The position numbers and the translations under genes were made by a program. DNA of 64,000 bases, from the NCBI GenBank assembly GCA_000091205.1, contig AP006497.2. One strand, written 5' to 3'. The notes under the pieces were generated by a model that did no database searches, was not told the origin of the DNA, and was given only the letters and a program-made list of their open reading frames with translations. This DNA comes from Cyanidioschyzon merolae. Its lineage: Eukaryota. Of the stretch, positions 9,231 to 63,876 are shown one piece after another; the stretch's first letter is position 1, and the number at the start of each line of letters is the position of its first letter.

Positions 9231-9992
9231 CCATGTCTTCCCGGAGCCTGTAGGCGCCTTAATCACGCCGCTCTGACCTGTTCTCAAAAGAGGAATCGCA
9301 CGACGCTGCACCAAGGTCGGTGCGTTGATGCCGTTTGCAGCCAGTATCGCCCGCACTTTTGCATTCGCGACCAGAGCGGAAAAGTCAGCGTCAGCATTCG
9401 CTATCTCCGCTTCGCTGTCACCGGGTATGAGATACGAGTCTATCAGGGAAGCCGACGCTGCTTCCACCTGCTCAGCTGGGCTCTTTTCGACCGCCGGAGA
9501 CGGCGGCAGCTTCGCAGATGAACCCGAACGTTGCCGTCGCTTTTCACCTGGGGGTGAAGCCAAGGCTTCTTGCCCGTTGCCGTTCCGTTTCTGTGCAAAG
9601 CTAGCTGGTTTACCATAGCCGTTTTTAGGGCCGTCACGAGCACTCGGTGGACCGGAAGCATCCCGACGTCGCGGGCGCTCGCGAGCCATGCACCACCAGC
9701 GATGCCGGCTGTAGCAACGTTCGCTGCTCCTCTCCAAAGCAGTGGAATTGTGCTTTCTCGCTGAGGGCACACTTGGGCTCAACGCAATCCAAGACGGTAT
9801 TTCCGTAATCGCCATCGAAAGAAAACCTCTTGAAGCACGCTCAGCGAAGAGGCCGTCGAGTCCAGCGGTGCCAGGACGCTGTGCACGTCGCCGCGGGGCA
9901 CTGGAATGACCCTCGCCCTCCTGCAACCCGCGCTGCACCTTGTTGTGCTGAACGAGTTGATCGTCGTAGAGGTAATCACGCGGTTTCCGCAT
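9231..9992 (-). CDS. DEAD-box RNA helicase, exon 1 (N-terminal extension, Q motif and Walker A). The start Met is uncertain.
   Basis: Encodes ...GINAPTLVQRRAIPLL (Q motif) and APTGSGKTW (motif I). The codon TGG at 9231-9233 is followed on the minus strand by GTAAGT. The ORF track runs through this into the intron and hits a stop at 9192. The N-terminal ~180 aa is an R/S/G-rich extension. The Met at 9992 overlaps the divergent EVE ORF start, so the real start may be a downstream Met. Confidence 0.7.
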
Positions 9993-10050
9993 GCTTGGAA
10001 CGATATTCGGGACCGGGTTATTGTTCTTGGTCCCAGTAACGCCAACTCTG

Positions 10051-10698
10051 ATGAAACTGCGGAAACGATCACTACCTGGTACTTGTGCTGCGAGCAGTCG
10101 CCGCGCTGGTGCTGTGCGAGCCCAGGTCGAGCGCTCTTCCCCAGAAGCAGAAGCGGTTCAGTTACCCGATCGTTCGGCGGAAAAGATCCAGAAACATCGC
10201 CTTGGAGCGAAGAAGCATGCCGTTGCGTATTATTTGGTAAAAAGCGAGGGTTCAGGGCCGCGCAAGTTCACCGTTGATGACCTTGCGGCGAGTCCTCTGC
10301 GTTGCACCAGCTGGGACGGCGTGCGTAACTTCCAGGCCCGCAACGTGCTACTATCCATGCAACTTGGAGACTTTGCCCTCTTCTATCACTCAAACTGTAA
10401 GCAAGCGGGGATAGTGGGCATTGTCGAGATCGTCCGGGAAGCCTACGTCGACCAGACCCAATTCGATAGCACGGACTCCGAGGCGTACGACCCCCGTGCG
10501 ACTCCCGACAAACCACGCTGGTATGCGGTGGACGTGAAACTTCAGTTGAAGCTACCGCGACCGATTCCGTTCGAGGAGTTGAAACAGTATGCAACGCCGG
10601 GCGGTCCACTGGACGGTATGCTGCTGTTCTCGCAGGCGCGCTTGAGCGTGCAACCGGTGCGCCCGGAGCATTTTCGATTTATTCTCGGCCTTTTTTGA
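10051..10698 (+). CDS. EVE (PUA-like) domain protein, thymocyte nuclear protein 1 (Thy28)-like
   Basis: The ORF is open from 9991. The conserved EVE core reads HAVAYYLVKSEGSGPRKFTVDDL...WDGVRNFQARNVLLSMQLGDFALFYHSNCKQAGIVGIVEIVREAYVDQTQFD...RWYAVDV, preceded by a basic region (MKLRKRS). The start at 10051 is chosen because the Met at 9991 overlaps the head-to-head helicase ORF. Confidence 0.75.
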   Translation: MKLRKRSLPGTCAASSRRAGAVRAQVERSSPEAEAVQLPDRSAEKIQKHRLGAKKHAVAYYLVKSEGSGPRKFTVDDLAASPLRCTSWDGVRNFQARNVLLSMQLGDFALFYHSNCKQAGIVGIVEIVREAYVDQTQFDSTDSEAYDPRATPDKPRWYAVDVKLQLKLPRPIPFEELKQYATPGGPLDGMLLFSQARLSVQPVRPEHFRFILGLF

Positions 10699-11555: not shown

Positions 11556-12815
11556 TCAGGCGGCCTTTTTCTTGGCTGCGTCTATTTTCTTCTGATCCAT
11601 ATGCTTCGCATACGAATAGATGAGGGTACCACCGACGGCGAGCGCCACACCGAGCCAATTAAGCGGGCGCATGATCGTACCAAATGCGATAACACTGGAT
11701 AATATGATAGCTAAACGCTTCACGACGTTACCAATCGAGAATGTCAATGGCGAAACATCCTCCAGTACGCCATACGATGCTTCGTTGTACAAGTGATAGA
11801 GCAGACTCGCCACTGCGATGTAGCCGAACACAGTGCCAGCGCCGATTCCCGGAATGCGGGACGCGACTTTCGGTAAACCTTCAAAGAGCAACGCCATGGG
11901 CAGCTCCAAGAAGAAGCTTATGATTGTGATCAGACCGTAGGTGTTGAAGGCGGTCAAGCTGGCGTCCTTCTTGGTGTCGCCGAGACTCACCTTGGAGGTT
12001 ACGTTTCGAGCGACAAACGCAAAGTTGCTCGCCATCGCGTTCAGGAAACCAGCCATCGTAAACGTTAACTCGCTGATGGATGAGAGTGCAACCCCAACGA
12101 TAATGGGAATCATGGCAAAGTACACCATGGGCGAGTAGTACTCGTGGAGAAAGAGCGCGGAACCCAGTGCACCGACCACTGGTTCCGCCGACTTCACCGT
12201 GTGCGTGAAGGAAATCGCTACCGACGAGAAAGATAAACAACTTGTCGCATGGCCTATGGTGTGGAAGAGAGACGGCAGAATTAGAGAGCGAATGAGCTTT
12301 CCGTTCACCTGCGGACGCCGGCGCAATCCCAGCAGCCACAGCACACTCACGTAGAGCGCTCCGACGCCAAGTTGTATCGTCGATAGAACCCAAGGATACG
12401 ACCACATATTCAACGTCTTCTTGTTCACGATATTAAAAACGACATTATACAGGTACCACATGAAGAACCAAAAACCGACTTTCAAGCGCTTTCGGCTAAG
12501 GCCAAGAAACACGGGTTTCGTCTGCGCGTCACCCGCGCTTGCCGGCATCGGTGACGACGGCGATGATGCGCTCTCCACCGCACAGCACAGCGCGCGACGT
12601 GAAACACCCACAGAGTGCACTGGAGCGGAGACGGCAGCACCGACTCGGGCCGGTCTCTTGGGGAGCACAACACCCCCGCAGCGAAACGCCGGCGAACCTT
12701 GAGACGCTAACCCAGACGCAGCGTGATGCACACGACTGCGCTGCAGCGTCCCCGTACCTCCGGGATGGACAAAGCTCAAACGCGTAGTGATGCACGCCGC
12801 ACGCATGGCTAGCAC
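11556..12815 (-). CDS. Triose-phosphate/phosphate translocator family (plastidic phosphate translocator-like, DMT superfamily) with an N-terminal extension
   Basis: The TPT core is strong: FWFFMWYLYNVVFNIVNKKTLN...SFTHTVKSAEPVV...LYHLYNEASYGVLEDVSPLTFSIGNVVKRL, with two halves of about 5 TM helices each and a C-terminal KKKAA tail. About 100 aa N-terminal to the first TM segment is S/A/R-rich with few acidic residues, which looks like a presequence. An alternative start is the Met at MPASAGD. Confidence 0.85.
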   Translation of the reverse strand: MLAMRAACITTRLSFVHPGGTGTLQRSRVHHAASGLASQGSPAFRCGGVVLPKRPARVGAAVSAPVHSVGVSRRALCCAVESASSPSSPMPASAGDAQTKPVFLGLSRKRLKVGFWFFMWYLYNVVFNIVNKKTLNMWSYPWVLSTIQLGVGALYVSVLWLLGLRRRPQVNGKLIRSLILPSLFHTIGHATSCLSFSSVAISFTHTVKSAEPVVGALGSALFLHEYYSPMVYFAMIPIIVGVALSSISELTFTMAGFLNAMASNFAFVARNVTSKVSLGDTKKDASLTAFNTYGLITIISFFLELPMALLFEGLPKVASRIPGIGAGTVFGYIAVASLLYHLYNEASYGVLEDVSPLTFSIGNVVKRLAIILSSVIAFGTIMRPLNWLGVALAVGGTLIYSYAKHMDQKKIDAAKKKAA

Positions 12816-14141
12816 TGCTTCAGAAACGTACGAACAGACCAGGAGAGATACCCAGGAACAGCAACTTCAGTTTCAAGTACGATCGTTTGCACGGCGTGCG
12901 CAACGACAGGTGCGGCGTCGATGATCGCGCCCTGGGGCGTCTGTGGCGGGCGGGGCGCCTCGCACTGCGCCAGCGCACATCGCGATGCCGCACCTGCACG
13001 CATGGGCCGTACAACATAGTATAAATATGGAAGTATGTAGACGCGTGATGTGTCGCTGGGCGGCGGGTACGCCACAGCCCAGCGCAGCACACAACATATC
13101 TGGTCAGTGCGGCGACACGGGTGCGCGTACGCATTACTCGAAGCGCTCGCGGTGTCGGTATGTTCGATATTCACGAGCGGACGCTGCTCCCGGGAGAGTC
13201 GAGATCTGGGTCGGCCGGGGCGTATCGAGTGCGCCAAAGCCGCCACTGGATGCTCGAGTACGACCACCAGAGGTATCGTATGTGCCGCAGCTTGTACATT
13301 GGCGCACCACCAGAAATTGCAATCCGTACCAGAACCCTGACAAATCCTTGTTGAGTCTACCAGCGGCTATTTCTTATCCGCTCTTTCCCTATAGATACCA
13401 GGCATAGTATCCCGTACGTCTCCATCTCATCTTTCCCTATAGATACCAAGCACAGCATCTTGTATATGTCCATCTCATCCTTCCCTATAGATACCAAGCA
13501 TAGTATCCCGAATATGTCCATCTCATCCTTCCCTATAGATACCAGGCATAGTATCCCGTACGTCTCCATCTCATCTTTCCCTATAGATACCAAGCACAGC
13601 ATCATGTATATGTCCATCTCATCCTTCCCTATAGATACCAAGCATAGTATCCCGAATATCTCCATCTCATCCTTCCCTATAGATACCAAGCACAGCATCT
13701 TGTATATGTCCATCCCATCCTTCCCTATAGATACCAAGCACAGCATCATGTATATGTCCATCTCATCCTTCCCTATAGATACCAAGCACAGCATCTTGTA
13801 TATGCCCATCTCATCCTTCCCTATAGATACCAAGCACAGCATCTTGTATATGCCCATCTCATCCTTCCCTATAGATACCAAGCACAGCATCTTGTATATG
13901 TCCATCCCATCCTTCCCTATAGATACCAAGCACAGCATCTTGTATATGCCCATCTCATCCTTCCCTATAGATACCAAGCATAGTATCCCGAATATCTCCA
14001 TCATCGACATAGCAGCGTCAGCGCTATGGACACCGTGCCTCCGCTGCGTCGATGGAAACGCGCGGCCGACGGCGCATCGGCCGGAGTACGCACCTCAGAC
14101 GCGTCAACTGAACAGCTCGCTGCTGGCTGCGGTATGCGTTT
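12816..14141. promoter_or_regulatory. Divergent (head-to-head) intergenic region between the TPT and family-A DNA polymerase genes. It contains the 48-bp minisatellite.
   Basis: The region is flanked by the start codons of two oppositely oriented genes at 12815 (minus) and 14142 (plus). No coding signature apart from the repeat-maintained ORFs. Confidence 0.4.
13378..14005. repeat. Minisatellite: 48-bp unit, about 13 tandem copies, in two alternating variants
   Basis: The unit tccatctcatccttccctatagataccaagcacagcatcttgtatatg is repeated head to tail. It alternates with a variant ending ...caagcatagtatcccgaatat(g/c)tc and a caggcatagtatcccgtacgtc form. The period is divisible by 3, so ORFs persist through it on both strands. 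Confidence 0.9.
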
Positions 14142-16988
14142 ATGCGCTGCGCTGCGTCGTTTCAGAGACCCGCAGAGAGCTACCATGATCTGCAGCCTAC
14201 GCTGACATTGCGAACGGAGTGCAACCAACGCAGTTCCCCGGTGAAGCGTCTTGAAACGCGTCCAGTTATCATGCGGTTAGGCGTAGGGTCTTGCCGGTTG
14301 TGGCTGGGCGCATTCGTGTACGCACTGCGTCCCGCTCTGCGAAGAGACGGAAACGTTTGGCAGCAGTGGCGCCGGGCACATGCCCTCGTGCCTGCTGTGC
14401 CTCGACGACGCTGGCTGTGTGCGAACGCCCGCCGTTCGGCTGCTAGTACCTGGGACGAGGAAACGGACGTGGTTGGTGACGAGTTCAGCTCCGTGAACCT
14501 GGTACAGGCGAGCGCGGCAAAGATAACCGAAGGCGACGAGTTCACCGCCCAGCGACTGCAGTTGCTGAACGCGCCTGAGCGCGAGAGCGCTGCCGCCACG
14601 CTCGAAAGGTCACCGCCGCCTGGTGTAACCGTCGTGCGCAACCGCGCAAGTGCGTTGCGCGTGATTGATCGGCTTTGGCAACTTCAGAAAGAGTCGGAGC
14701 TTCTTTACGGACGTCGGGCTGCTTCGGTGCCGAGGCGATGGCGTCTCATAACGGAGGGTTGTACCCACTCGAATGGCAACGGTGTGCTCCACGAGGACAA
14801 CACGCTCCAGTGCAAGCGTCTGTATCCACCGACCGCAGCGGACTGGATGGAGCACTCGCAGTGTTATCACGCTTGGGATACGGAAACCATTGGCATTGAT
14901 CCGACAGAGGACTCCCCTGTTGGGAAAGGTCAGGTGATCTGTCTCTCGGCGTTCTGTGGGCCGCGTGTAGACTTTGGGAATGGACCCCGCCTTTGGATCG
15001 ACAATTTTGGCGACGCACAAGGTACGCTGGACTATTTCAAGTCTTATTTCGAAAATGAGGAAATTCCCAAAGTTTGGCATAACTACAGCTTCGACCGAGC
15101 GGTCCTTTATAACCACGGCATCGACTGTCGAGGATTCGGCGGCGATACCATGCACATGAGCCGACTATTGGACGCAGCGAGACTGCGTTACTCTCTGGAG
15201 GCGCTCACGGAAGACTTTCTGCTGCGGAAGAAACGCAGCATGCGGGAGCTGTTCGGTCGGCCTCGTATTTTGAAAAATGGAAAACCAGGCAAGGAGATTA
15301 TCGTACCGTCCACCAGCGAACTCCAGATGGACCCTGAGACCATGTACCACTGGGTGCAGTATAGCACCTATGATGCCGAGGCAACCTGGTATCTGCGCGA
15401 TAAATTTGAGCGTCTGCTTCGTGAACAGGAGATCCTCGGCTCGGAGCGAACCATGTATGACCTTTATACGGAATGTTTCGTTCCTTTTGGTGCGGTCTTA
15501 ACCGATATGGAACGCATCGGCTTCAAGATTGATATTGCGCGACTCCAAGATGCGCAACGTGTAGCCGAAGCCGACCGCCAACGTTACACTGCAATGTTTC
15601 GAGAATGGGCAGCGCGCTACTGTGCTGATGCAATCCACATGAATGCCGAGTCGGAGAATCAAAAGCGCCAATTCTTTTTCGCCCCGGTCCGGAACAAGAA
15701 AACCGATGAATTGTTGCCAGCAGAGCGCACTTTCGAGGTCGAGAACACGGAACAGGTCGTGGAGTCCGCGGGGAAGAAGCCCCGCAAGAAGCGAACCATA
15801 CAAATATCCGGTCTCGGGCTGCCGCCCGTGGCGTTCACTGCAAGCGGTTGGCCGGCTTGCACGGCGGTGGTGCTGCGGAAACTGGCGGGCACGCCGAGCG
15901 CGAGTCCCGCCCAGGGCGGGCTCCTGTATGACTTTCTCACCAAAGAGCGACGGGAGAGCGCGGAGGATGCGCTTGCGGCGTGCAAAGCCGTTGAGGCGCT
16001 ACTTGAGGCTGGTGCAGTCGGCACCCTGCTCGACAGTTTCATCGATCCGCTGCAGAAGATGGTGGATAAGAACCATCGCATTCATGCGTCGCTCAACTTG
16101 AACACGGAAACAGGTCGGTTGTCGTCGCGGCGGCCGAATCTGCAAAATCAACCCGCTCTAGAGAAAGATCGCTATCGTGTTCGGGATGCTTTCACTTGCG
16201 AGGAGGGCAATACGCTGATTGTAGCGGACTATGGCCAACTCGAGCTGCGATTACTTGCGCATATCGCCAACTGCCGCAGCATGATTGAGGCGTTTAAGGC
16301 TGGTGGCGACTTTCATTCGCGCACGGCGAGCAGCATGTACCCGTACATCGCAGAATCCGTTGCCCGCGGCGACGTGCTTCTTGAACCCGAGCCCAATGCC
16401 AACGGACAGGCCACTTCGTCGAAGCCGCTGCTCAAGGATGTATACGCAGGGGAGCGACGTCGGGCCAAAACACTCAATTTTTCAATCGCATACGGGAAAA
16501 CGCCAGCTGGGCTGGCGCGAGACTGGGGCACCAGCCTGAAAGAAGCTCGCGAGACCGTAGATGCTTGGTACCGGGATCGACCCGAGGTTCGTGCCTGGCA
16601 GGAGCGCGCTATTAAGTTCGCGCAAACCCATGGATTCGTGAAAACGCTGCTGGGTCGACGGCGGCCTCTGCCGGAGATCAACTCCCCGAATACGAATGCG
16701 GCTCGCCATGCGGAACGTGCAGCGATTAACACCCCTCTCCAAGGTAGCGCAGCCGATGTTGTTATGAAAGCCATGCTGCTCATTCATAGCAACGCACGTT
16801 TGGCTGAACTTGGCTGGCGAATGATCCTCCAGGTCCACGATGAGATCATCCTCGAGGGGCCCGAAGAAACAGTCGAAGAAGCGGAAGCAATTGTCGTTCG
16901 GCTTATGCGTCAACCGTTCCGTGAACCGCTGCGCGTTGACCTCGCTGTTTCGGTCGCTCACGCGAAGACGTGGTTTCGTGCAAAGTAA
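14142..16988 (+). CDS. Organellar-type family-A DNA polymerase (Pol I-like, POP-like) with a 3'-5' exonuclease domain and an N-terminal targeting-like extension
   Basis: Exo motifs: YHAWDTETIGIDP (Exo I, DxE) and YSTYDAEATWYL (Exo II). Polymerase motifs: DYGQLELRLLAHIA (motif A), RRRAKTLNFSIAYGKT (motif B) and QVHDEIILEGPEE (motif C). The N-terminal ~100 aa is R-rich and acid-poor (MRLGVGSCRLWLGAFVYALRPALRR...), consistent with an organelle presequence. Confidence 0.85.
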   Translation: MRCAASFQRPAESYHDLQPTLTLRTECNQRSSPVKRLETRPVIMRLGVGSCRLWLGAFVYALRPALRRDGNVWQQWRRAHALVPAVPRRRWLCANARRSAASTWDEETDVVGDEFSSVNLVQASAAKITEGDEFTAQRLQLLNAPERESAAATLERSPPPGVTVVRNRASALRVIDRLWQLQKESELLYGRRAASVPRRWRLITEGCTHSNGNGVLHEDNTLQCKRLYPPTAADWMEHSQCYHAWDTETIGIDPTEDSPVGKGQVICLSAFCGPRVDFGNGPRLWIDNFGDAQGTLDYFKSYFENEEIPKVWHNYSFDRAVLYNHGIDCRGFGGDTMHMSRLLDAARLRYSLEALTEDFLLRKKRSMRELFGRPRILKNGKPGKEIIVPSTSELQMDPETMYHWVQYSTYDAEATWYLRDKFERLLREQEILGSERTMYDLYTECFVPFGAVLTDMERIGFKIDIARLQDAQRVAEADRQRYTAMFREWAARYCADAIHMNAESENQKRQFFFAPVRNKKTDELLPAERTFEVENTEQVVESAGKKPRKKRTIQISGLGLPPVAFTASGWPACTAVVLRKLAGTPSASPAQGGLLYDFLTKERRESAEDALAACKAVEALLEAGAVGTLLDSFIDPLQKMVDKNHRIHASLNLNTETGRLSSRRPNLQNQPALEKDRYRVRDAFTCEEGNTLIVADYGQLELRLLAHIANCRSMIEAFKAGGDFHSRTASSMYPYIAESVARGDVLLEPEPNANGQATSSKPLLKDVYAGERRRAKTLNFSIAYGKTPAGLARDWGTSLKEARETVDAWYRDRPEVRAWQERAIKFAQTHGFVKTLLGRRRPLPEINSPNTNAARHAERAAINTPLQGSAADVVMKAMLLIHSNARLAELGWRMILQVHDEIILEGPEETVEEAEAIVVRLMRQPFREPLRVDLAVSVAHAKTWFRAK

Positions 16989-31866: not shown

Positions 31867-33135
31867 CTATGCAGGACGTGTTCGTCGGAAATACCACCAG
31901 CACACGGATGCACCAGTGTACGCACAGGACGCGAGAACCCCCAGCAGACCCGTGAAATAAACAATCCGCTCGGTATGCTCCATCAGAATCGCGCGCGTCT
32001 CATACCAGCGTCGGGGATGTTTGAGCGCTCCTGCCGTAGCGCTTGTGGGTGGAAAAGTGTCGCTCGCCATGCGCGCTGCAACGACGTGTGCACCACGCAG
32101 GCCGAGGTCCTCGGCGAGCACCACTTTCACGGGAATGCGCCGCAAGATCGTGCTCACACGTCCTTTTTCCCGGAAACGCTTCAGAAAATCCGACTTGCCT
32201 TCCTGGAGCCATTCGAGGTTTTTAGGAGCTATTCCGCCCGCAATATAGAGACCACTAAACGGTAGGTATTTGAGCGCTGCGTTCCCGCACTCGGTACCGT
32301 AGATATCCATCATCATACGCATCGCCTGCGCGCAAAGGCCACACTCGTACACGTAGCGAGCGATGGTTGCAGCGCCATCATTCGATTCTAGGATGGATTT
32401 ATCGATACTTGGTTGCACTTTTTCGGGGTACTTTTCCCGCAGGAATTCATAAATGTTGACGAGTCCTCGTCCGCTGACGACGCGTTCCACAGAGACCCTA
32501 TGGCCGCTGTCACCGAACTTGTTTCGCAAGTACTGCAGAAGCTCCAACTCTAGTTCCGTTATTGGCGCAAAATCTACATGACCTCCCTCGGTCGCGTGTG
32601 CCTCATAGTGCCACACGGTGGATCCCTGACCCGACACATCCGGCTGGGCGCACGCAGTGAGGTAGCACTCCCCGAGACCAGTGCCGGCTCCGACACAAGC
32701 TTTTGGCTCACCAGCACTCGGCTCGCCACGCTGCAAGACATAACACTCGTCTGGCTCCCTCAACGTGAGCAGTCCGTACCCGTTCGAAACAAAATCGTTC
32801 AAGAAACGGACGCGATCAATATGGAACGCGTCTCGCAACTCATTCGCATCCAGAATCCACTGCTGTCGGTTCGTGAACGAGACCCGGTCGGCGACGACAG
32901 GTCCCGCTACCGCAAGGCACATAGCAGCGATATAGAAGGAGGCATCGTTGAGGTGTGCACGCGCTTCCTGCACGAAAGTGTCCAGTACATCGTGGAAGCG
33001 GGAAAACTGCTCGTTCCTATACGATGTTCTGTGGACGCACGGCTGAGCGCAGACATCATCCGAGTCTGTCGCATCGAATATCGCTAGGCGAGCATTCGTG
33101 CCCCCTATATCACCTGTCACAATTAACTTGCGCAT
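31867..33135 (-). CDS. glk: Bacterial-type glucokinase (Glk / ROK-unrelated family) with a C-terminal hydrophobic tail. The ORF is open further upstream, to 33684.
   Basis: MRKLIVTGDIGGTNARLAIFD (cf. bacterial Glk LVGDVGGTNARFAL) is followed by a glucokinase-fold body: GAGTGLGECYL and the LYIAGGIAPKN region. The C-terminus carries about 25 hydrophobic residues, IVYFTGLLGVLASCAYTGASVCWWYF, followed by RRTRPA. The 183 codons upstream of this Met are open and may be an N-terminal extension or the 5'UTR. Confidence 0.8.
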   Translation of the reverse strand: MRKLIVTGDIGGTNARLAIFDATDSDDVCAQPCVHRTSYRNEQFSRFHDVLDTFVQEARAHLNDASFYIAAMCLAVAGPVVADRVSFTNRQQWILDANELRDAFHIDRVRFLNDFVSNGYGLLTLREPDECYVLQRGEPSAGEPKACVGAGTGLGECYLTACAQPDVSGQGSTVWHYEAHATEGGHVDFAPITELELELLQYLRNKFGDSGHRVSVERVVSGRGLVNIYEFLREKYPEKVQPSIDKSILESNDGAATIARYVYECGLCAQAMRMMMDIYGTECGNAALKYLPFSGLYIAGGIAPKNLEWLQEGKSDFLKRFREKGRVSTILRRIPVKVVLAEDLGLRGAHVVAARMASDTFPPTSATAGALKHPRRWYETRAILMEHTERIVYFTGLLGVLASCAYTGASVCWWYFRRTRPA

Positions 33136-36100
33136 TCCTAAAGCATGAGCCGGTAGGTTTGCAGGCACGAGCGCTCTTGCCGCAGCCGCAAAGCGATAGC
33201 GGTATTCGCAATCGCGTACAAGGTTCGTGTGGTGACGCCAGACCGGCGTCGCTTGTCGTTGCCGCACATCCCTGCTGCAACGACAAGTCCGTACAATGAC
33301 GCAGATATTTTGGTTTGAAAGAATGTTTATATGGACTATGGATATCCAGATTGCGGGGCGGGTATTGGCTTCTGGGCAAGCGTCCATTAAACTGGACCCT
33401 ACCTCCAAGTTCCATAACTTGTACTTTCTTTCGGATGCACTGATCGGTTCGAACGTTCTATCAGACGCCGAGTACCCGCATTGAGCTCCTGTCTTTGCGC
33501 TTCTACCGTTGGAGTCGATGCATCCCGAAGACAGAGCGACTTTACCATACCACTGAAGGGCGTCGGCTCGAGATGTCGTGTACCCGACGCCAGGTCGTAT
33601 CTCGTTGTATGTTCGTGCTTGGAGAGACTGTGCAACAGGCCTGCTTTCGCGGCCTTTCGCGTTAGCGCAACCTAGCTCATACAAAGAATTCTGAATACCG
33701 AGTCACCGACTCGCAGTATTGTGTCGAATACGTCGTCGGTTCGTGTAGCGGGCCTGTGCTCGGCAAACACCGGTAATGAGTGCACGAATCGACGAACCCG
33801 CGCGCTCATCTGGTTTGCCGGACCCCCGTCCTGATATGTAGAAGGAGAGTTTCGTATCCACTAGTGAGTGATGTCGTTCGTATAAAGCGATGTCAGGTGC
33901 CAGGGCTGCACGCGATGTGAACGAGCGCCCTTATCAACTACATGTACATGTAGAGGATGCAGTCACGCACGGAGATCGCTTCGTTCCTGCTGCCAGCTTG
34001 GACAGCGTAAGCATAAACCTGTCAGAATGACGGCAGTTGCGTTCCAGCAGCAGGTTCACTGTGGTCCCCAGTGAATATCTAGTGTTTCGACACGGTATAG
34101 AGCCGAGGCTAACCACATCCCACGGATCCGCTCTTTGGTGCACGAATGAGTCCCTCTGGTACGAGCCGCGGACTTGAGCCTGCAGGCATGCTCACAAATT
34201 TTGAGACATTCATGTCATTCCACTTTCTTCTCAATGCTCGTATCAGCATAGAATTCTCGTCATATACGAGACCCCGGATACTGTAATCTTTATTTCGCAT
34301 TAGGGCGTTTGTGTTCCGGGATGAAACTGAAGGTTTGTTGTCTCTGCGCTATGATTTGCATTTTCTGTCGCGCGATGAAACGGTGCAAGTCGTTGACTTC
34401 TTCTGACTCTGGTCTTCGACAGCTCCGGAATGTTGCGGCACTCGTTGTCGTGATTGTTCCATGTGGTGCCTCATCTGGGAGCGTCTTCCCGGCATCCTCC
34501 ACGCTCTCAGTGCAGCACGCTGTCGATCGGAGAAGTATATGACCTTCTTTCAGTTTCGTTCGTTTCTTCATTGGTGATGGCCCTCGTCGTTATCACTTTC
34601 AAGTTCGTATGTCGACTTGCGCAACGAGTACACGCTTTCGACGTCCGGCATTCGCAGATGTCCACCACACGCACATGCAGTATTTCTGTAAACTTCTGTG
34701 TGGTCGCTTTCTATGCGCTGCATTTACGACGGGATATCGGACGCATGGCTACTGCACCCCAGTTTACGAACCAGATGACCGTCTTTTCGCCACTCGGCAT
34801 CAGAGGAGAATGCAGATCGCCTAGATTGCATTCTGGTCAAACGAGTGACGCAGAGCACCTCAGCTGCTGGTCTCCAGAACGAGCTCTGTGTTTCAGTTAT
34901 TCAGGGAGAACGCTCAAATTCGCTCGCATATGAGTATTGTCGCCTGAAATCGTCTTTTCGCAAATGGTGAGACGAGCAGTACCATCCTCTGTCTGTTGCC
35001 TCTCTTTTTGTGTTTTCTTCGCGCTGTAAACGAACCTCGCCTGGTGGTCCTCTCTTCTGCTGCTGGAATGACGCGTCTCTGACTCCGGACTAGAGTCTGA
35101 AAAGGTAAATTCGACGTCTGAAAAACCCGGGTCCACGCGTACGAATCTTTGGTTATCTTCCAGAATGCGGAAGACTTTCGTTGTCTCCGTTCTCGCCTAG
35201 AGATATTCGGCGATGCTCGAGGTTGAACCCTGACATCGTACCCGTGCGAGAGAAAACGGAAACAGAATTGACTGTCTATGGCTTCAGCAGCTTTGATATT
35301 GGAGTTTTTCTGGTAAACCTTCCTGTTCGTTGACTTACTCCATTTCATTTCGTTCTTTTCCTACTCATGATTTCATGGTGAGGTGGAGTTCCCATGACAC
35401 CCGAGAAACTGAAAGAAACGTAACCAATTGTGAAGCCAAGCATCCTCGGGCGGGAGAGCGAACGTCTTGGACGGCGTGTACCTCTTCTGCCTTATGAATC
35501 CCGTTCTCGCCAGGTATTCGCAGTGTTGACACCCTCTTCCAACGATTTCGTAGTACAGAGAAAATGCGAAACGTGTCGGAGACGAATGCTTCAGTCAGAG
35601 AGAATCCTTCGAGGGAATTCGTCTCCTCAAGTCTGCCGCGAGCTCGACAGCCAATTTCATCTTCGGTTTTCATTGGCGATCACTTCCGGTGAAATAGGAC
35701 GTCGAACTTTCGAACGATCCGGCGGGTGCCGCACAGACAAGCTCTCTCTCTCTCTCTCGAAACGCCCTCGATTTAGTTACCATGCATCAGCTTGACTTAA
35801 TGAACGACACGAAACCCGATATTCATCAGGACGTGATTCGTTTCTGCCGTCGCCATCGTGATGGGAAGCTCCACGTGCATCTGCGTCATTCCAAAGAGAT
35901 ACGCCTTCATTGACGCTCACTGTTCGTGCCCTTCGGTTTCTTCTTCATTTCGTCCGGGTTACAAAGCACCGAATTCATCAACGCTTAACCTGAGACTCGA
36001 GCTGATACTTTTCCTGCAGTTGTTTCGGTGCCTCTTGAAACAAGCGATGACACAAGCGTAAGAAAGTTCTCATTCAGGGAAGGCAGCACGTTTTTGGGAG

Positions 36101-44941: not shown

Positions 44942-47698
44942 ATGGGTCGGGCTCGGGAGCCCGCGTATCGTAAGAGGGGTTTTCAACGGACCTGGATCAG
45001 CAAAGTTTATCTGGCAAACTTAGGCGAGTCATCGGCGGTGGATGAAACGCAGTCCCCAAACCTCGGTCTAACGTGCTGGGCACCGTCGATATGTCCTGCT
45101 AGCCAGCACGGACGTGCTGGCGCTTTCCTCCCGCTGGCTTCTGGACCAATTGTTGGCCTCCTGAGGCACCGCCCGGACCGCAGAGAGCGCCTCCAGACGA
45201 GCTTGAACGCTCGGAGCGCCACCGCGGAAGCGAAACGCTTCTTTCTCCAGCGGCGTCGATGCCACCATGCACCGCAAGCCTTTTCTAGGGCGCTTCATAC
45301 ACCGCCGAGAGGCCAGCGCACGCTGCATGACTCCCAGTTTTTGGGAAGAGCAAGTGAGTTTCACCGACCTTGTCTGCTACGGCGACAAGCACGTGCACCA
45401 TGGTCCTTGTGCATGGAGCAAGGCGACCGCGCTTCCGCTTCGGAGCGTACAACTCCTCCGCGTACCGCAAATGACGTTCAGCAAGGCATCCAAGAGGCAA
45501 GTCAGCGAAAAGCCGGTGCACGAAGACACCCGGGGCGGCGTTTTGCTGCGTTTACGCAGATGCTGGCCCGTCGTTCGACCTACCGCGATGGCCTCGTGCT
45601 GCTCCTGCTCGTACTGCTGGCATATGCCATGGCGGGAACCACGAGTTATGCCATAACGCAGCGCTATGATCCAAGTGCGGTACGAATATCGTGCGACCCG
45701 CGCGTGCTACCGGCGTACGGTTTCCAGTCGCTCATGAGACTGGTACTGGCCTACGGATTCTCACTGGTATTCTCGTTAATCTACGCGTACATTGCGTACA
45801 GGGCCTCGTTTGCTGCGCAAGTGCTGCTTCTCATTATTGACGTTTTGCAATCCGTCCCTATTCTCGCTTTTGTCCCAGCAGCAGTGCTGGGCCTGATCGC
45901 CATGTTTCCAGGGCAACGCATTGGGGTCGAGCTGGCAGCGATGCTGTTGCTCTTCACCTCGATGGCGTGGAATATGCTTCTTGGCTTTTACCAGTCCCTA
46001 ATATCCATACCGCCGGACCTGATGGAGGCAGCCAGAATACTGCGACTCTCAGCGTGGCGGCGTTTTTGGTTGCTGGAAGCGCCTTCGGGCGTGTGCTCCC
46101 TCGTCTGGAACTCCATTATCTCCGTGTCCAGCGGGTGGTTCTTTCTGATAAGCATCGAGAGCTTCTCACTGGGGCCCGGCAGAGAATATCGTCTGCCGGG
46201 CTTGGGAAGTTTCCTTGCTGAGGCTGCGGATCGAGGCAATATGCGCGCGATCTTCTGGGGTCTGTTCACTGTAGTGTCGCTTATTATCTGCATCGATATG
46301 TTGATCTGGCGTCCGCTGATCGTCTGGAGTGAGCGCTTCAAGTTCTCGACGAACGCCAGTTCCGGCATCGGGGCGATCAGTTCGCTGCAGAGGAAGGCAT
46401 CGCGCTCGCCTTCGTCGTCGTCGTCTGGGCTGCGTTCGTCACTGGGGTCGGACGCTAATTTCGCGGATGAAGACGACGACCGCGAGAACGATAACTACGA
46501 CGACGACGACGACGATGATGATGAGAATGACGCGTCTTCTTTCGCGTGGGCTGGTGCACCACGTCGGCAGTTCCGTGTTCTGGAGCTTGTCCAGATACCG
46601 GATGCAACCGCGAGTGCCACAAGCAGCGCGCCCGGACTCGCGATCATGCACAGCATCGAAGGTGAGTCTGCTCCCGGAGCCGAGCAGGTTGTCATCCAAC
46701 AACGCGAACTGGACGCACCACGAAGCATCGTGTTTGCATATTTCCAGCGCTCTCCATTGATGCGTGCCGTTCACCGGCGATTCTTTCTGCCTCTCTGGCA
46801 GAAATTCATTGATGCAGACGTGATCTGGGAGCGTGCAACGGAAACAACTTCCCAGACGCTGGCACTAGCCTGGAAGCGCGTGCATCAGCCGCATCTGTTG
46901 CTGCGGCTCTGGGGCTTTATGGTTCGTTTGCTTACATGGAGCAGTGTGCTGGGCATCGCCTGGTTGGCGTTTCTGGCGTTTCGCGTTGCCCACCACGCGC
47001 TACGGATTCTGCAGACGATTTCGTGGCGCTCGTGGATCACCATTCTGAGCTGTGCTGGACTGACCTTTGGTCGTGTGCTGACGGCTTTAGCGCTCTCGTT
47101 ATTATGGACAGTTCCACTGGGGGTTGCTGTCGGGTGCTCACCGGCACTGGCTCGCGTCCTCCAGCCGCTAGTCCAGATCGCTGCTTCCGTGCCAGCGACG
47201 GCAGTATTCCCGTTTCTGCTCCTGGGGTTAGCGAATTTCGGCGGGCTTGGCTTGCAGATTGGCTCGATCCTCTTGATGATGTTCGGCACGATGTGGTACA
47301 TTCTGTTCAACGTCATTGCAGGTGCTGCAGCGATTCCCGCGGAGCTCTGGGAAGTTGACGCGGTTTACAACAAGGCCACAGACTCGTGGCTTGCTCGCCA
47401 GTGGAGACGATGGCGCTTTCTCATCCTGCCCGGTATCTTCCCATACCTCATCACTGGTATTGTTACGGCTGTTGGAGGCGCGTGGAATGCGAGCATCGTT
47501 AGTGAGTACGTCCAGTTCCAGGGCCAGATTTTATCGACCAAAGGTCTGGGGGCGCTCATATCGAACGCAGCGGCTCGTGGTGATTTACCGTTGCTGTTAG
47601 CGGGGACCCTGGTCATGTCTAGTTTGGTGCTGCTCACGAATCGTTTTGTCTGGGCGCCACTCTACAAGTTAGCGCGTGAACGCTACACGCTCAACTAG
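44942..47698 (+). CDS. Bacterial-type ABC importer permease: two fused BPD_transp_1 (binding-protein-dependent transport inner-membrane) domains, NitT/TauT- or FbpB-like, joined by an acidic linker
   Basis: EAA motifs occur in both halves: MEAARILRLSAWRRFWLLEAPSGV in the first, and ELWEVDAVYNKATDSWLARQWRRWRFLILPGIFPYLITGIVTAVGGAWNASIVSEY...GLGALI in the second. There are about 6 TM helices per half. A poly-Asp/Asn linker (DEDDDRENDNYDDDDDDDDEND, encoded by (GAC)n) separates them. The N-terminal 206 aa are R/A/P-rich low complexity, so the real start may be the Met at 45560 (MLARRSTYRDGLVLLLLVLL). No ABC ATPase or solute-binding protein ORF is present in the window. Confidence 0.8.
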   Translation: MGRAREPAYRKRGFQRTWISKVYLANLGESSAVDETQSPNLGLTCWAPSICPASQHGRAGAFLPLASGPIVGLLRHRPDRRERLQTSLNARSATAEAKRFFLQRRRCHHAPQAFSRALHTPPRGQRTLHDSQFLGRASEFHRPCLLRRQARAPWSLCMEQGDRASASERTTPPRTANDVQQGIQEASQRKAGARRHPGRRFAAFTQMLARRSTYRDGLVLLLLVLLAYAMAGTTSYAITQRYDPSAVRISCDPRVLPAYGFQSLMRLVLAYGFSLVFSLIYAYIAYRASFAAQVLLLIIDVLQSVPILAFVPAAVLGLIAMFPGQRIGVELAAMLLLFTSMAWNMLLGFYQSLISIPPDLMEAARILRLSAWRRFWLLEAPSGVCSLVWNSIISVSSGWFFLISIESFSLGPGREYRLPGLGSFLAEAADRGNMRAIFWGLFTVVSLIICIDMLIWRPLIVWSERFKFSTNASSGIGAISSLQRKASRSPSSSSSGLRSSLGSDANFADEDDDRENDNYDDDDDDDDENDASSFAWAGAPRRQFRVLELVQIPDATASATSSAPGLAIMHSIEGESAPGAEQVVIQQRELDAPRSIVFAYFQRSPLMRAVHRRFFLPLWQKFIDADVIWERATETTSQTLALAWKRVHQPHLLLRLWGFMVRLLTWSSVLGIAWLAFLAFRVAHHALRILQTISWRSWITILSCAGLTFGRVLTALALSLLWTVPLGVAVGCSPALARVLQPLVQIAASVPATAVFPFLLLGLANFGGLGLQIGSILLMMFGTMWYILFNVIAGAAAIPAELWEVDAVYNKATDSWLARQWRRWRFLILPGIFPYLITGIVTAVGGAWNASIVSEYVQFQGQILSTKGLGALISNAAARGDLPLLLAGTLVMSSLVLLTNRFVWAPLYKLARERYTLN

Positions 47699-62327: not shown

Positions 62328-63407
62328 CTACGGTGCAGGTCGATCGAGCAGTGCTGGATCCAGCTTGCAGTGCAGTTCCTGCTGCGCTTCGAATAGGCGA
62401 AGGAACGCCTCAACGGCGGCACGTGTATCCGCTCGCCAGCAGAGTGTCGCCCTCAGCTTATCGATAGATGATCTCTCCGCTGCACTATCGTTGTGCGCTG
62501 ACGCTGTATCCAGCGGAAGATAGCAGCGTTGCCGTAGGGTAGACTCTGGCCACTGGCCTCCTTCCGCCGGTACCAGCTCGAGAACGCGCCCCAGGAACCA
62601 GAACGTCACCGCCGGTCGACGAAGCGTGCCTTTCCCGTCCAAAGAGTCAGTACACGGGACCGCTTCACAGAGACTGCAGTGCCGAACCAGCGGTCGAAGT
62701 AGTTGCACACGGGCACCGGCCTCCTCGAAGGCCTCGCGACAGGCCGCAGCAGCGGGTGTTTCACCGACCTCGACACCGCCGGCCGGTAAGATGTAACGGG
62801 CTGGCTGTTGCCCCGCTTGTCGCTGATTAGCGCCGTCGCTGGTTTGATGTCGAGACGTCACAGCTAGGATGAAGCGCTCATCCGGTGACAGGGCCAACAC
62901 ACCGGCTCGCACGCGAGCATCCAAGGCGCTCCGGTCGGCGGAAAGCCTCTGGGCACAGCGGCACGGCTCGAAGCCAGTCACAGTTTGCCATCCGAGCTCC
63001 GAGACTGAAGCTGGTGTATCGTCCGACATTATAGGGCGGCTCAGACCCCACCGCGCTACTGGTCTGGGGGTCGCATTCCCGCAGACCTTGTGCTTTGGTA
63101 CCCGCGAGCAACGCAGAAGCCGGTCAACGTCGCTGTTGCGCACTGTTCGAAACGAAGCGCTGTACGCGCAGGGTAACGTTTGTGTGAATCGAAACGCTTC
63201 TCTGCGGCTGTGTTCGCTGCTCGGGCGCCTTCGGGGACGCATGGCTACCTTAAGCTTCCTTTTCGGTACGTCTTCTGCCAGGTTCACTTCAGGACACGAT
63301 GCATGGTCGCGGGCGGGTGTCCGAGCGTCGTGGAACGTGGCGCCAGCCCAGCGTTTGCCCCGAGCGAAGGTCGGACTGCGGACCCTGGTGGCGCGCACCA
63401 AGAGCAC
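62328..63407 (-). CDS. NUDIX hydrolase. The likely true start is the Met at 63029, since the upstream ORF extension overlaps the SmpB gene.
   Basis: Nudix box GGVEVGETPAAAACREAFEEAGARV (G-x5-E-x7-REUxEExGU). The C-terminus is unique. The ORF upstream of the Met at 63029 is R/S/P-rich and overlaps the opposite-strand SmpB ORF. Confidence 0.7.
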   Translation of the reverse strand: MLLVRATRVRSPTFARGKRWAGATFHDARTPARDHASCPEVNLAEDVPKRKLKVAMRPRRRPSSEHSRREAFRFTQTLPCAYSASFRTVRNSDVDRLLRCSRVPKHKVCGNATPRPVARWGLSRPIMSDDTPASVSELGWQTVTGFEPCRCAQRLSADRSALDARVRAGVLALSPDERFILAVTSRHQTSDGANQRQAGQQPARYILPAGGVEVGETPAAAACREAFEEAGARVQLLRPLVRHCSLCEAVPCTDSLDGKGTLRRPAVTFWFLGRVLELVPAEGGQWPESTLRQRCYLPLDTASAHNDSAAERSSIDKLRATLCWRADTRAAVEAFLRLFEAQQELHCKLDPALLDRPAP

Positions 63408-63876
63408 CTCGAGTCCTAGCGTCGAAAACCGTCGAATAAACTTTCAGTATGAGGTTCTTTGGACCTTGGAATGTGGAATAGAGCTCAAAGGAACGGAGAT
63501 TAAGTCGGTGCGGGCGGGGAAGATGAACATCCGAGACGCGTTTGCGCGGGCGAAGCGAGGAACCAACGACCTCTGGCTCTATAACTGCCATATTGCGCCA
63601 CATGACCGAACAGCGACGTTCTTCAACCACCAACCGACACGACCTCGCCGTCTCTTAGCGCATAAACAGGAAATTCGGCGGTTGCTGCAGGCTCAAGAGG
63701 AAAAGGGACTTACGCTGGTACCGCAGCGGTGTTACTTCGACCAGCGCCAGCGGCTGAAAGTGCTGCTCGCAGTCGCCCGTGGTAAGAAACTTCACGACAA
63801 ACGCGAGAGTATTCGGGAACGTGACGAGGCACGTTCCATGAAACGATTCGCCAAATACGACCTGAGAGACTTGTAG
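63241..63876 (+). CDS. smpB: SmpB (tmRNA-binding trans-translation protein) with an N-terminal organellar presequence-like extension. The ORF is open from 62869.
   Basis: The core is colinear with bacterial SmpB: NFQYEVLWTLECGIELKGTEIKSVRAGKMNIRDAFARAKRGTNDLWLYNCHIAPHD...RRLLAHKQEIRRLLQAQEEKGLTLVPQRCYFDQRQRLKVLLAVARGKKLHDKRESIRERDEARSMKRFAK (cf. E. coli GKKQHDKR). It is preceded by about 65 aa of S/T/A/R-rich, acid-poor sequence starting at MATLSFLFGTSSARF. Confidence 0.85.
   Translation: MATLSFLFGTSSARFTSGHDAWSRAGVRASWNVAPAQRLPRAKVGLRTLVARTKSTSSPSVENRRINFQYEVLWTLECGIELKGTEIKSVRAGKMNIRDAFARAKRGTNDLWLYNCHIAPHDRTATFFNHQPTRPRRLLAHKQEIRRLLQAQEEKGLTLVPQRCYFDQRQRLKVLLAVARGKKLHDKRESIRERDEARSMKRFAKYDLRDL

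Follow-up and report, generated by a model that had tools for sequence, protein, structure and literature searches.

A phosphate translocator gene of Cyanidioschyzon merolae and the probable chloroplast transit peptide of its product

The stretch of Cyanidioschyzon merolae DNA analysed here (64,000 nucleotides of contig AP006497.2, called the window below) contains on its minus strand an open reading frame (ORF) at 11556..12815, which encodes a phosphate translocator preceded by an N-terminal extension of about one hundred residues. The ORF is present in the ORF listing of the window as a preliminary description of the sequence had said, and the question that it raises is whether the extension directs the transporter to a plastid or is 5' sequence before an internal start codon, and, with this, in which membrane the transporter works and what it carries. 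It is highly probable that the gene is nuclear and encodes the precursor, complete with a transit peptide, of a phosphate translocator of the chloroplast inner envelope, which is orthologous to the Galdieria protein GsGPT/GsTPT2. The finding is real but ordinary, and it carries little weight beyond good annotation; the Galdieria orthologue is already known, having been characterised biochemically and crystallised. Residues are numbered in the 416-residue protein described below, except in the Pfam match, which is given in the numbering of a 419-residue version.

The translocator is identical, at 100% over 100% of its length, to BAM81610.1 / XP_005537646.1 / UniRef100_M1V611 of C. merolae 10D, and its gene is an already annotated gene of that strain with the product name "probable glucose 6 phosphate/phosphate translocator". 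The Pfam domain TPT (PF03151) is matched from end to end (profile 1-291 of 291, residues 111-401, E=5.4e-88, 295.6 bits against a cut-off of 30), as expected for the plastidic-type core that the preliminary description had recognised. The only solved relatives found by sequence were 5Y78 and 5Y79, and the phmmer alignment with 5y78_A (E=1e-114) paired residues 107-402 of the query with residues 17-312 of the chain. An AlphaFold2 model predicted helices throughout residues 100-415, with a predicted local distance difference test score (pLDDT) of 82-98 in the core. When this model was compared with known structures in Foldseek, 5y78_A was again the top match (target TM-score 0.96, root-mean-square deviation 1.4 Å, 303 columns, 59% identity), followed by nucleotide-sugar transporters with 15-20% identity. 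The membrane core, residues 107-402 (11601..12488, minus strand), therefore combines the TPT domain with a predicted fold of the DMT superfamily, with ten transmembrane (TM) helices as in 5Y78. It is followed by a Lys-rich C-terminal tail, residues 403-416 (MDQKKIDAAKKKAA; 11559..11600, minus strand), which is kept in Cyanidiococcus.

The structure 5Y78 is that of Galdieria Gasu_21660, previously named GsGPT and renamed GsTPT2, in which phosphate is contacted by Lys204, Lys362, Arg363 and Tyr339 and the carbon moiety by His185, Thr188, Phe192 and Phe263 (bioRxiv 10.1101/169169). By alignment, the equivalents in C. merolae are Lys205, Lys363, Arg364 and Tyr340, and His186, Ser189, Phe193 and Phe264. 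All four phosphate-binding residues are thus present, and 7 of the 8 substrate contacts are identical, the remaining one being the replacement of Thr188 by Ser189. In the same alignment, plant GPTs have Met at the position of Phe193, and two plant PPTs have Asn at the positions of both His186 and Phe264.

The preliminary description had looked to a phylogeny among the clades of plastidic phosphate translocators (pPTs) to place the protein, and this was provided by a neighbour-joining tree, a distance method, of 292 columns with limited taxon sampling and 100 bootstraps scored as bipartitions. The query and GsTPT2 fell within a red-algal clade (100% bootstrap), which grouped with the green GPT/XPT sequences in 98% of replicates and with the green TPT sequences in 1% (1/100). 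By descent, on this tree, the translocator is assigned to the GPT/XPT branch, which explains the name that it was given in the database.

For the start of the gene, the preliminary description had read the N-terminus as MLAM, which was incorrect. The sequence there is V-L-A-M, and the GTG at 12815, from which the 419-residue version begins, was taken as a start solely by the bacterial start rule of the ORF tool. The first ATG of the ORF is at 12806-12804 on the minus strand, resulting in a protein of 416 residues that begins MRAACITTRLSF. The complete coding sequence occupies 11556..12806 (minus strand) as a single exon of 416 codons and a TGA stop codon at 11556-11558, supported by the ORF and by the full-length identity with the annotated protein. 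Upstream of this start is a putative 5' untranslated region (UTR) of 64 nt (12807..12870, minus strand), which is free of ATG and has an in-frame TGA at its 5' end (12869-12867). A hint, though a weak one, to the limit of this region comes from a public single-gene short-read contig (L017, SRR29605877), in which an Illumina adapter is fused exactly at window position 12870. This junction would fit the end of a cDNA; the library type is unclear, and the ends of the contig coincide with sites of single-nucleotide polymorphisms (11117 and 12873/12874). The contig was therefore dropped as a proven transcript.

The composition of the extension agreed with the acid-poor, presequence-like stretch of about 100 residues noted previously. 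There are 106 residues ahead of the first TM helix (TM1), of which two are acidic, and within residues 1-75 Asp and Glu are absent, against 10 Lys or Arg (net charge +10), together with 16% Ser and Thr, 14.7% Ala, 12% Gly and 6.7% Pro. In 13 other ORFs of the window Asp and Glu make up 10.6% of residues, and the chance of finding no acidic residue in 75 at that rate is about 2e-4. The first acidic residue is Glu78. The extension is also predicted to be disordered, with an AlphaFold2 pLDDT below 50 for residues 1-98. No hydrophobic segment resembling a signal peptide was found in residues 1-100, where the highest 15-residue Kyte-Doolittle mean was 1.23 (residue 55) compared with 2.45 in the core. 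An endoplasmic reticulum signal peptide, or the bipartite leader of secondary plastids, was ruled out by this absence of an N-terminal hydrophobic h-region.

Comparison between species indicated that the extension is translated. The Cyanidiococcus yangmingshanensis orthologue is 87% identical and 415 residues long and has its ATG start at the equivalent place, with the first 60 residues unalignable. In a third cyanidiophyte lineage (contig L005, ENA ERZ1300892) the frame runs upstream to MRPAHLAFVSGLP (MRPAHLAFVSG...). An ATG-started ORF of 105-125 codons before TM1 is therefore kept in three cyanidiophyte lineages. We relied on this retention across species in place of the openness of the frame in one genome; where the DNA is rich in G+C, as here, and another frame stays open over 88 codons, such openness is weak evidence. 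Between C. merolae and Cyanidiococcus, residues 65-86 gave a local alignment score of 51 against 27.4±5.3 for shuffled sequences, a value reached by 1 of 1000 shuffles. Of these 22 residues, 11 are identical, and six of the 11 are encoded by different synonymous codons in the two species, with CGT→AGG for an Arg among them; conservation of this kind is the mark of selection acting on the protein. Residues 76-106 scored 103 against 29.8±5.3 for shuffled sequences. No indel or stop codon was found in the extension in the contigs compared. In the wider family, 40 of 40 homologues, several of the red-algal ones from transcriptomes, carry an acid-poor extension before TM1 (median 97 residues, range 65-164). 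The evidence therefore favours reading the extension as a translated and cleavable chloroplast transit peptide rather than as 5' sequence ahead of an internal start.

The kind of targeting peptide may be indicated by an aromatic residue near the N-terminus. Nine red-algal orthologues, some derived from transcriptomes, begin with the pattern M-x(3-5)-F-[VIL] (e.g. MIEAAFV, MDGVCFV, MKGCAFV and MAALGFV), and in a MAFFT alignment Phe12 of the C. merolae protein, within LSFVHP, falls in one column with the N-terminal Phe from seven red-algal orthologues; in Cyanidiococcus the residue in this column is Tyr (Tyr/Trp). The transit peptides of rhodophytes and glaucophytes are described as typically having an N-terminal Phe (PMC2222254; PMC9407449), whereas those of the green lineage do not depend on it (PMC2222254). 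Like the extension studied here, the transit peptides of C. merolae ApcC (CMO250C) and PHD1 (CMO263C) are acid-poor, basic and unstructured and carry an aromatic residue towards the N-terminus, but their Phe is among the first few residues. PHD1, which is encoded on the same chromosome and was localised to the plastid with green fluorescent protein (GFP), begins MFVALA (primer in PMC6325583); the CMO263C primer sequence had no match in the window. Targeting predictors of the kind proposed in the preliminary description perform poorly in C. merolae: for several of its proteins the outputs of TargetP, PSORT and Predotar were at odds with the compartment shown by GFP (PMC3914683, Table 1).

A cleavage site near Cys75/Ala76 is suggested by the residues just ahead of the conserved block, which read LCC/AVE in C. 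merolae (...RRALCC, then Ala76), MRA/AAD in Cyanidiococcus and IRA/AVD in Galdieria. These share the form [ILM]-x-[AC]|A, which resembles the consensus of the plant stromal peptidase, (V/I)-x-(A/C)|A. With a cut there, residues 1-75 (12582..12806, minus strand) would be the cleavable chloroplast transit peptide, as proposed from their composition, pLDDT below 50 and lack of a signal-peptide-like hydrophobic segment, and residues 76-106 (AVESASSPSSPMPASAGDAQTKPVFLGLSRK; 12489..12581, minus strand), which include Met87 and are conserved with Cyanidiococcus, would form the N-terminal tail of the mature protein.

For the substrate, the protein is, on balance, likely to be a strict antiporter of inorganic phosphate (Pi), triose phosphate and 3-phosphoglycerate (3-PGA) rather than a glucose 6-phosphate (Glc6P) transporter, judging by its orthologue and by the pocket. 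The construct used for GsTPT2, residues 91-410, is in its authors' description free of the transit peptide; it exchanged Pi, triose phosphate and 3-PGA and did not exchange C6 phosphates (bioRxiv 10.1101/169169). According to a review of Linka et al. 2008, the Galdieria orthologue uses 3-PGA and Glc6P poorly, and in neither account is Glc6P a good substrate. In red algae floridean starch is made in the cytosol (review), and the poor use of Glc6P by the Galdieria orthologue fits with this cytosolic synthesis of the storage glucan.

We infer from these comparisons a route for the C. merolae protein in which translation would begin at the first AUG (12806) and the first 75 or so residues would form an unstructured, basic and acid-free transit peptide with Phe, of the red-algal kind. 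This peptide could guide the cytosolic precursor through the import machinery of the envelope and would then be removed, probably near Cys75/Ala76. The mature protein, in the inner envelope membrane, would act as a strict 1:1 antiporter of Pi against phosphorylated C3 compounds (triose phosphate and 3-PGA), with phosphate bound by Lys205, Lys363, Arg364 and Tyr340 and the pocket for the carbon moiety shaped by His186, Ser189, Phe193 and Phe264. Such antiport could export fixed carbon to the cytosol, where the storage glucan of red algae is synthesised.

Several observations weigh against this account. The codon-usage log-odds score of the extension, trained on 13 Pfam-supported ORFs of the window, was -0.02 per codon, which is the best of the six frames yet below 98% of windows from true genes; it lies between the values for genes (0.19±0.09) and for off-frame windows (-0.32±0.17), so that the score does not discriminate for the extension. 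The natural variants found in the extension comprise 4 nonsynonymous and 0 synonymous changes. These fit a weakly constrained peptide and would fit non-coding DNA equally well; the 8-9 substitutions among natural variants over the whole gene are too few for a ratio of nonsynonymous to synonymous rates (dN/dS), and variation in the non-coding flanks is no higher, with 1 substitution in 653 nt upstream and 4 in 857 nt downstream. In the other orthologues the N-terminal Phe comes at positions 5-6, earlier than the Phe12 found here. The published characterisations of the Galdieria protein differ on 3-PGA, which was a poor substrate in one (Linka et al. 2008, per the review) and transported in the other (Lee et al. 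2017). The searchable literature yielded no experiments on where the C. merolae protein is located, how it is processed or what it transports.

The codon-usage score and the variants could be explained if codons 1-86 were an untranslated 5' UTR that is open by chance and translation began at the internal Met of MPASAGD, which is Met87 (codon 12548-12546). The score near zero resembles that of one frame of the upstream intergenic DNA, the G+C-rich region has another frame open for 88 codons, all the extension variants are nonsynonymous, and Met87 was the start picked by automatic gene callers on four public contigs (L018-L021). However, the upstream ORF is intact on these contigs, and the 330-residue database proteins that begin at Met87 (P0079, P0080) were rejected as evidence of a short isoform, being choices of the gene callers. 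In Cyanidiococcus the position of Met87 is Leu (CTG), with no Met there or just after. Together with the protein-level conservation of residues 65-86 across six synonymous codon changes, the ATG-started ORF in three lineages, the comparable extension in every homologue examined and the lack of an ATG in the 64 nt before 12806, this makes an origin of translation at Met87 highly improbable; a nuclear-encoded envelope transporter starting there would have about 20 residues before TM1 and be without an import signal. Of the two options left by the preliminary description, the translated extension is thus favoured over the internal start. A combination of both, in which Met87 is a second, minor start used by leaky scanning or from an internal transcription start, could produce an isoform without transit peptide in a non-plastid membrane, so that one gene would serve two compartments, and this is very improbable. 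A milder, related option is a variant import route, which the displacement of Phe to position 12, with its ancestral place taken by Cys, could possibly mark in the Cyanidioschyzon/Cyanidiococcus lineage.

If the extension is translated, it could still be a mitochondrial presequence, one that serves mitochondrion and plastid, or one for another endomembrane, and so not exclusive to the chloroplast. Basic, acid-free N-termini rich in Ser, Ala and Arg are common to mitochondrial and plastid presequences, the canonical early Phe is shifted to position 12, the family descends from endomembrane nucleotide-sugar transporters, and the neighbouring gene encodes POP (CMO270C), which GFP placed in both the plastid and the mitochondrion of C. 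merolae (PMC3914683). We regard such targeting as very unlikely, since the query is inside the plastidic GPT/XPT clade (98%) and the red-algal clade (100%), in which the Galdieria protein is taken to be a chloroplast protein made with a transit peptide; in addition, Phe12 aligns with the Phe of red-algal transit peptides, an extension of 75-106 residues is typical of pPT transit peptides, and no hydrophobic segment of the signal-peptide kind is present. With a chloroplast location, the protein could be a functional glucose-6-phosphate/phosphate translocator, as annotated, carrying hexose phosphate across the envelope. This would agree with the database name and with the position of its clade in the tree as sister of the green GPT/XPT group and not of TPT. 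It is nevertheless unlikely, as C6 phosphates were no substrates of the orthologue GsGPT/GsTPT2, Glc6P import into the plastid for starch is not needed where the glucan is stored in the cytosol, and the pocket shares Phe193 with GsTPT2, TPT and XPT. This is the one pocket position in the alignment that sets the plant GPTs, with Met, apart. The product name therefore probably misstates the substrate and should not be read as a function.

Considered as the precursor of a chloroplast C3-phosphate antiporter, the C. merolae protein is closest to Galdieria GsGPT/GsTPT2 (Gasu_21660; 5Y78, 5Y79), with a core 57-59% identical and the same red-algal clade and predicted fold. The two extensions, of 105 residues in Galdieria and 106 in C. 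merolae before TM1, are unalignable apart from a similar motif at the proposed cleavage site. Galdieria GsTPT2 differs in Thr188 in place of Ser189 and in its N-terminal Phe, at position 6 rather than 12. Land-plant GPT1/GPT2 and XPT, the sister group (98%), resemble the C. merolae protein in their domain and in all four residues that bind phosphate, and their cleavable N-terminal transit peptide is about as long as its extension; the GPTs among them differ in Met at the position of Phe193 and in transporting Glc6P, which the red-algal orthologue does not. Land-plant and green-algal TPTs have the same contacts (H, F, K, F, Y, K, R) except at position 189, and would share the C3-phosphate/Pi antiport proposed here, although by descent they are a separate subfamily (1 of 100 bootstraps joins them to the red clade).

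The loss of the N-terminus from database entries could have consequences for annotation. In several public metagenome contigs prokaryote-style gene callers start the gene at Met87 or at a non-ATG codon, and the transit peptide is lost as a result; one example is the database protein P0003 (L005, 2740-3000), with a non-ATG start about 85 codons downstream of the probable ATG. Such truncated proteins could mislead the automated inference of localisation.

The genomic setting also bears on the suggestion in the preliminary description that a relict plastid, or the presence of a plastid at all, was at stake. This is moot, as the protein is from a photosynthetic red alga with one chloroplast, and the window also encodes the organelle-directed proteins POP/CMO270C and SmpB. 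The locus tag of the translocator gene is probably CMO269C, judging by the number of its neighbour, CMO270C. Nothing was found in the literature under the tags CMO269C, CMN328C and CMK114C. The upstream, divergently transcribed neighbour at 14142-16988 (plus strand) encodes a family-A DNA polymerase with a 3'-5' exonuclease domain; it is POP (CMO270C), and the window therefore lies on C. merolae chromosome 15. Other proteins of organellar type encoded in the window are a nuclear SmpB with an N-terminal extension, a protein with an ABC-permease domain and a bacterial-type glucokinase.

The intergenic region between the translocator and POP genes, 1335 bp long, contains a 48-bp minisatellite of 12.9 copies with a 90% match (13385-14002). 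In a metagenome contig of the same species (L006, 3141-3425) there are 5.9 copies and the intergenic region is shorter by 336 bp (7x48); the number of copies is therefore polymorphic. A number of short-read contigs break off at this repeat, and the long ORFs at 13357-14010 (minus strand) and 13460-14188 (plus strand) are artefacts of it.

On the other side of the translocator gene, the convergent neighbour at 9991-10698 (plus strand) encodes an EVE-domain protein, and the two genes are also adjacent in Cyanidiococcus (L001). About 78 residues precede the EVE domain, starting MLGTIFGTGLLF, and the first 48 or so are basic, acid-free and similar to a targeting peptide. An organelle-targeted EVE-domain protein, if true, deserves attention. 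In the 3' flank of the translocator gene, 11397 C>G and 11358 G>A differed from the window in 5 of 5 non-reference contigs compared; these differences may be private to the reference strain or may be reference errors.

Further away, the SmpB-domain ORF at 62869-63876 (plus strand) and a NUDIX ORF at 62328-63407 (minus strand), both in longest-ORF form, share about 540 nt in a head-to-head overlap. Their true starts are likely to be Met125 of SmpB at 63241 (MATLSFLFGT..., rich in Phe and similar to a red-algal transit peptide) and Met127 of the NUDIX protein at 63029, with about 210 bp between them; a nuclear SmpB implies a trans-translation system in the plastid. Also in longest-ORF form, the glucokinase domain (PF02685) at 31867-33684 (minus strand) has about 190 residues of N-terminal ORF ahead of it, and the ABC-permease domain (BPD_transp_1) lies within an ORF of 918 residues at 44942-47698 (plus strand).

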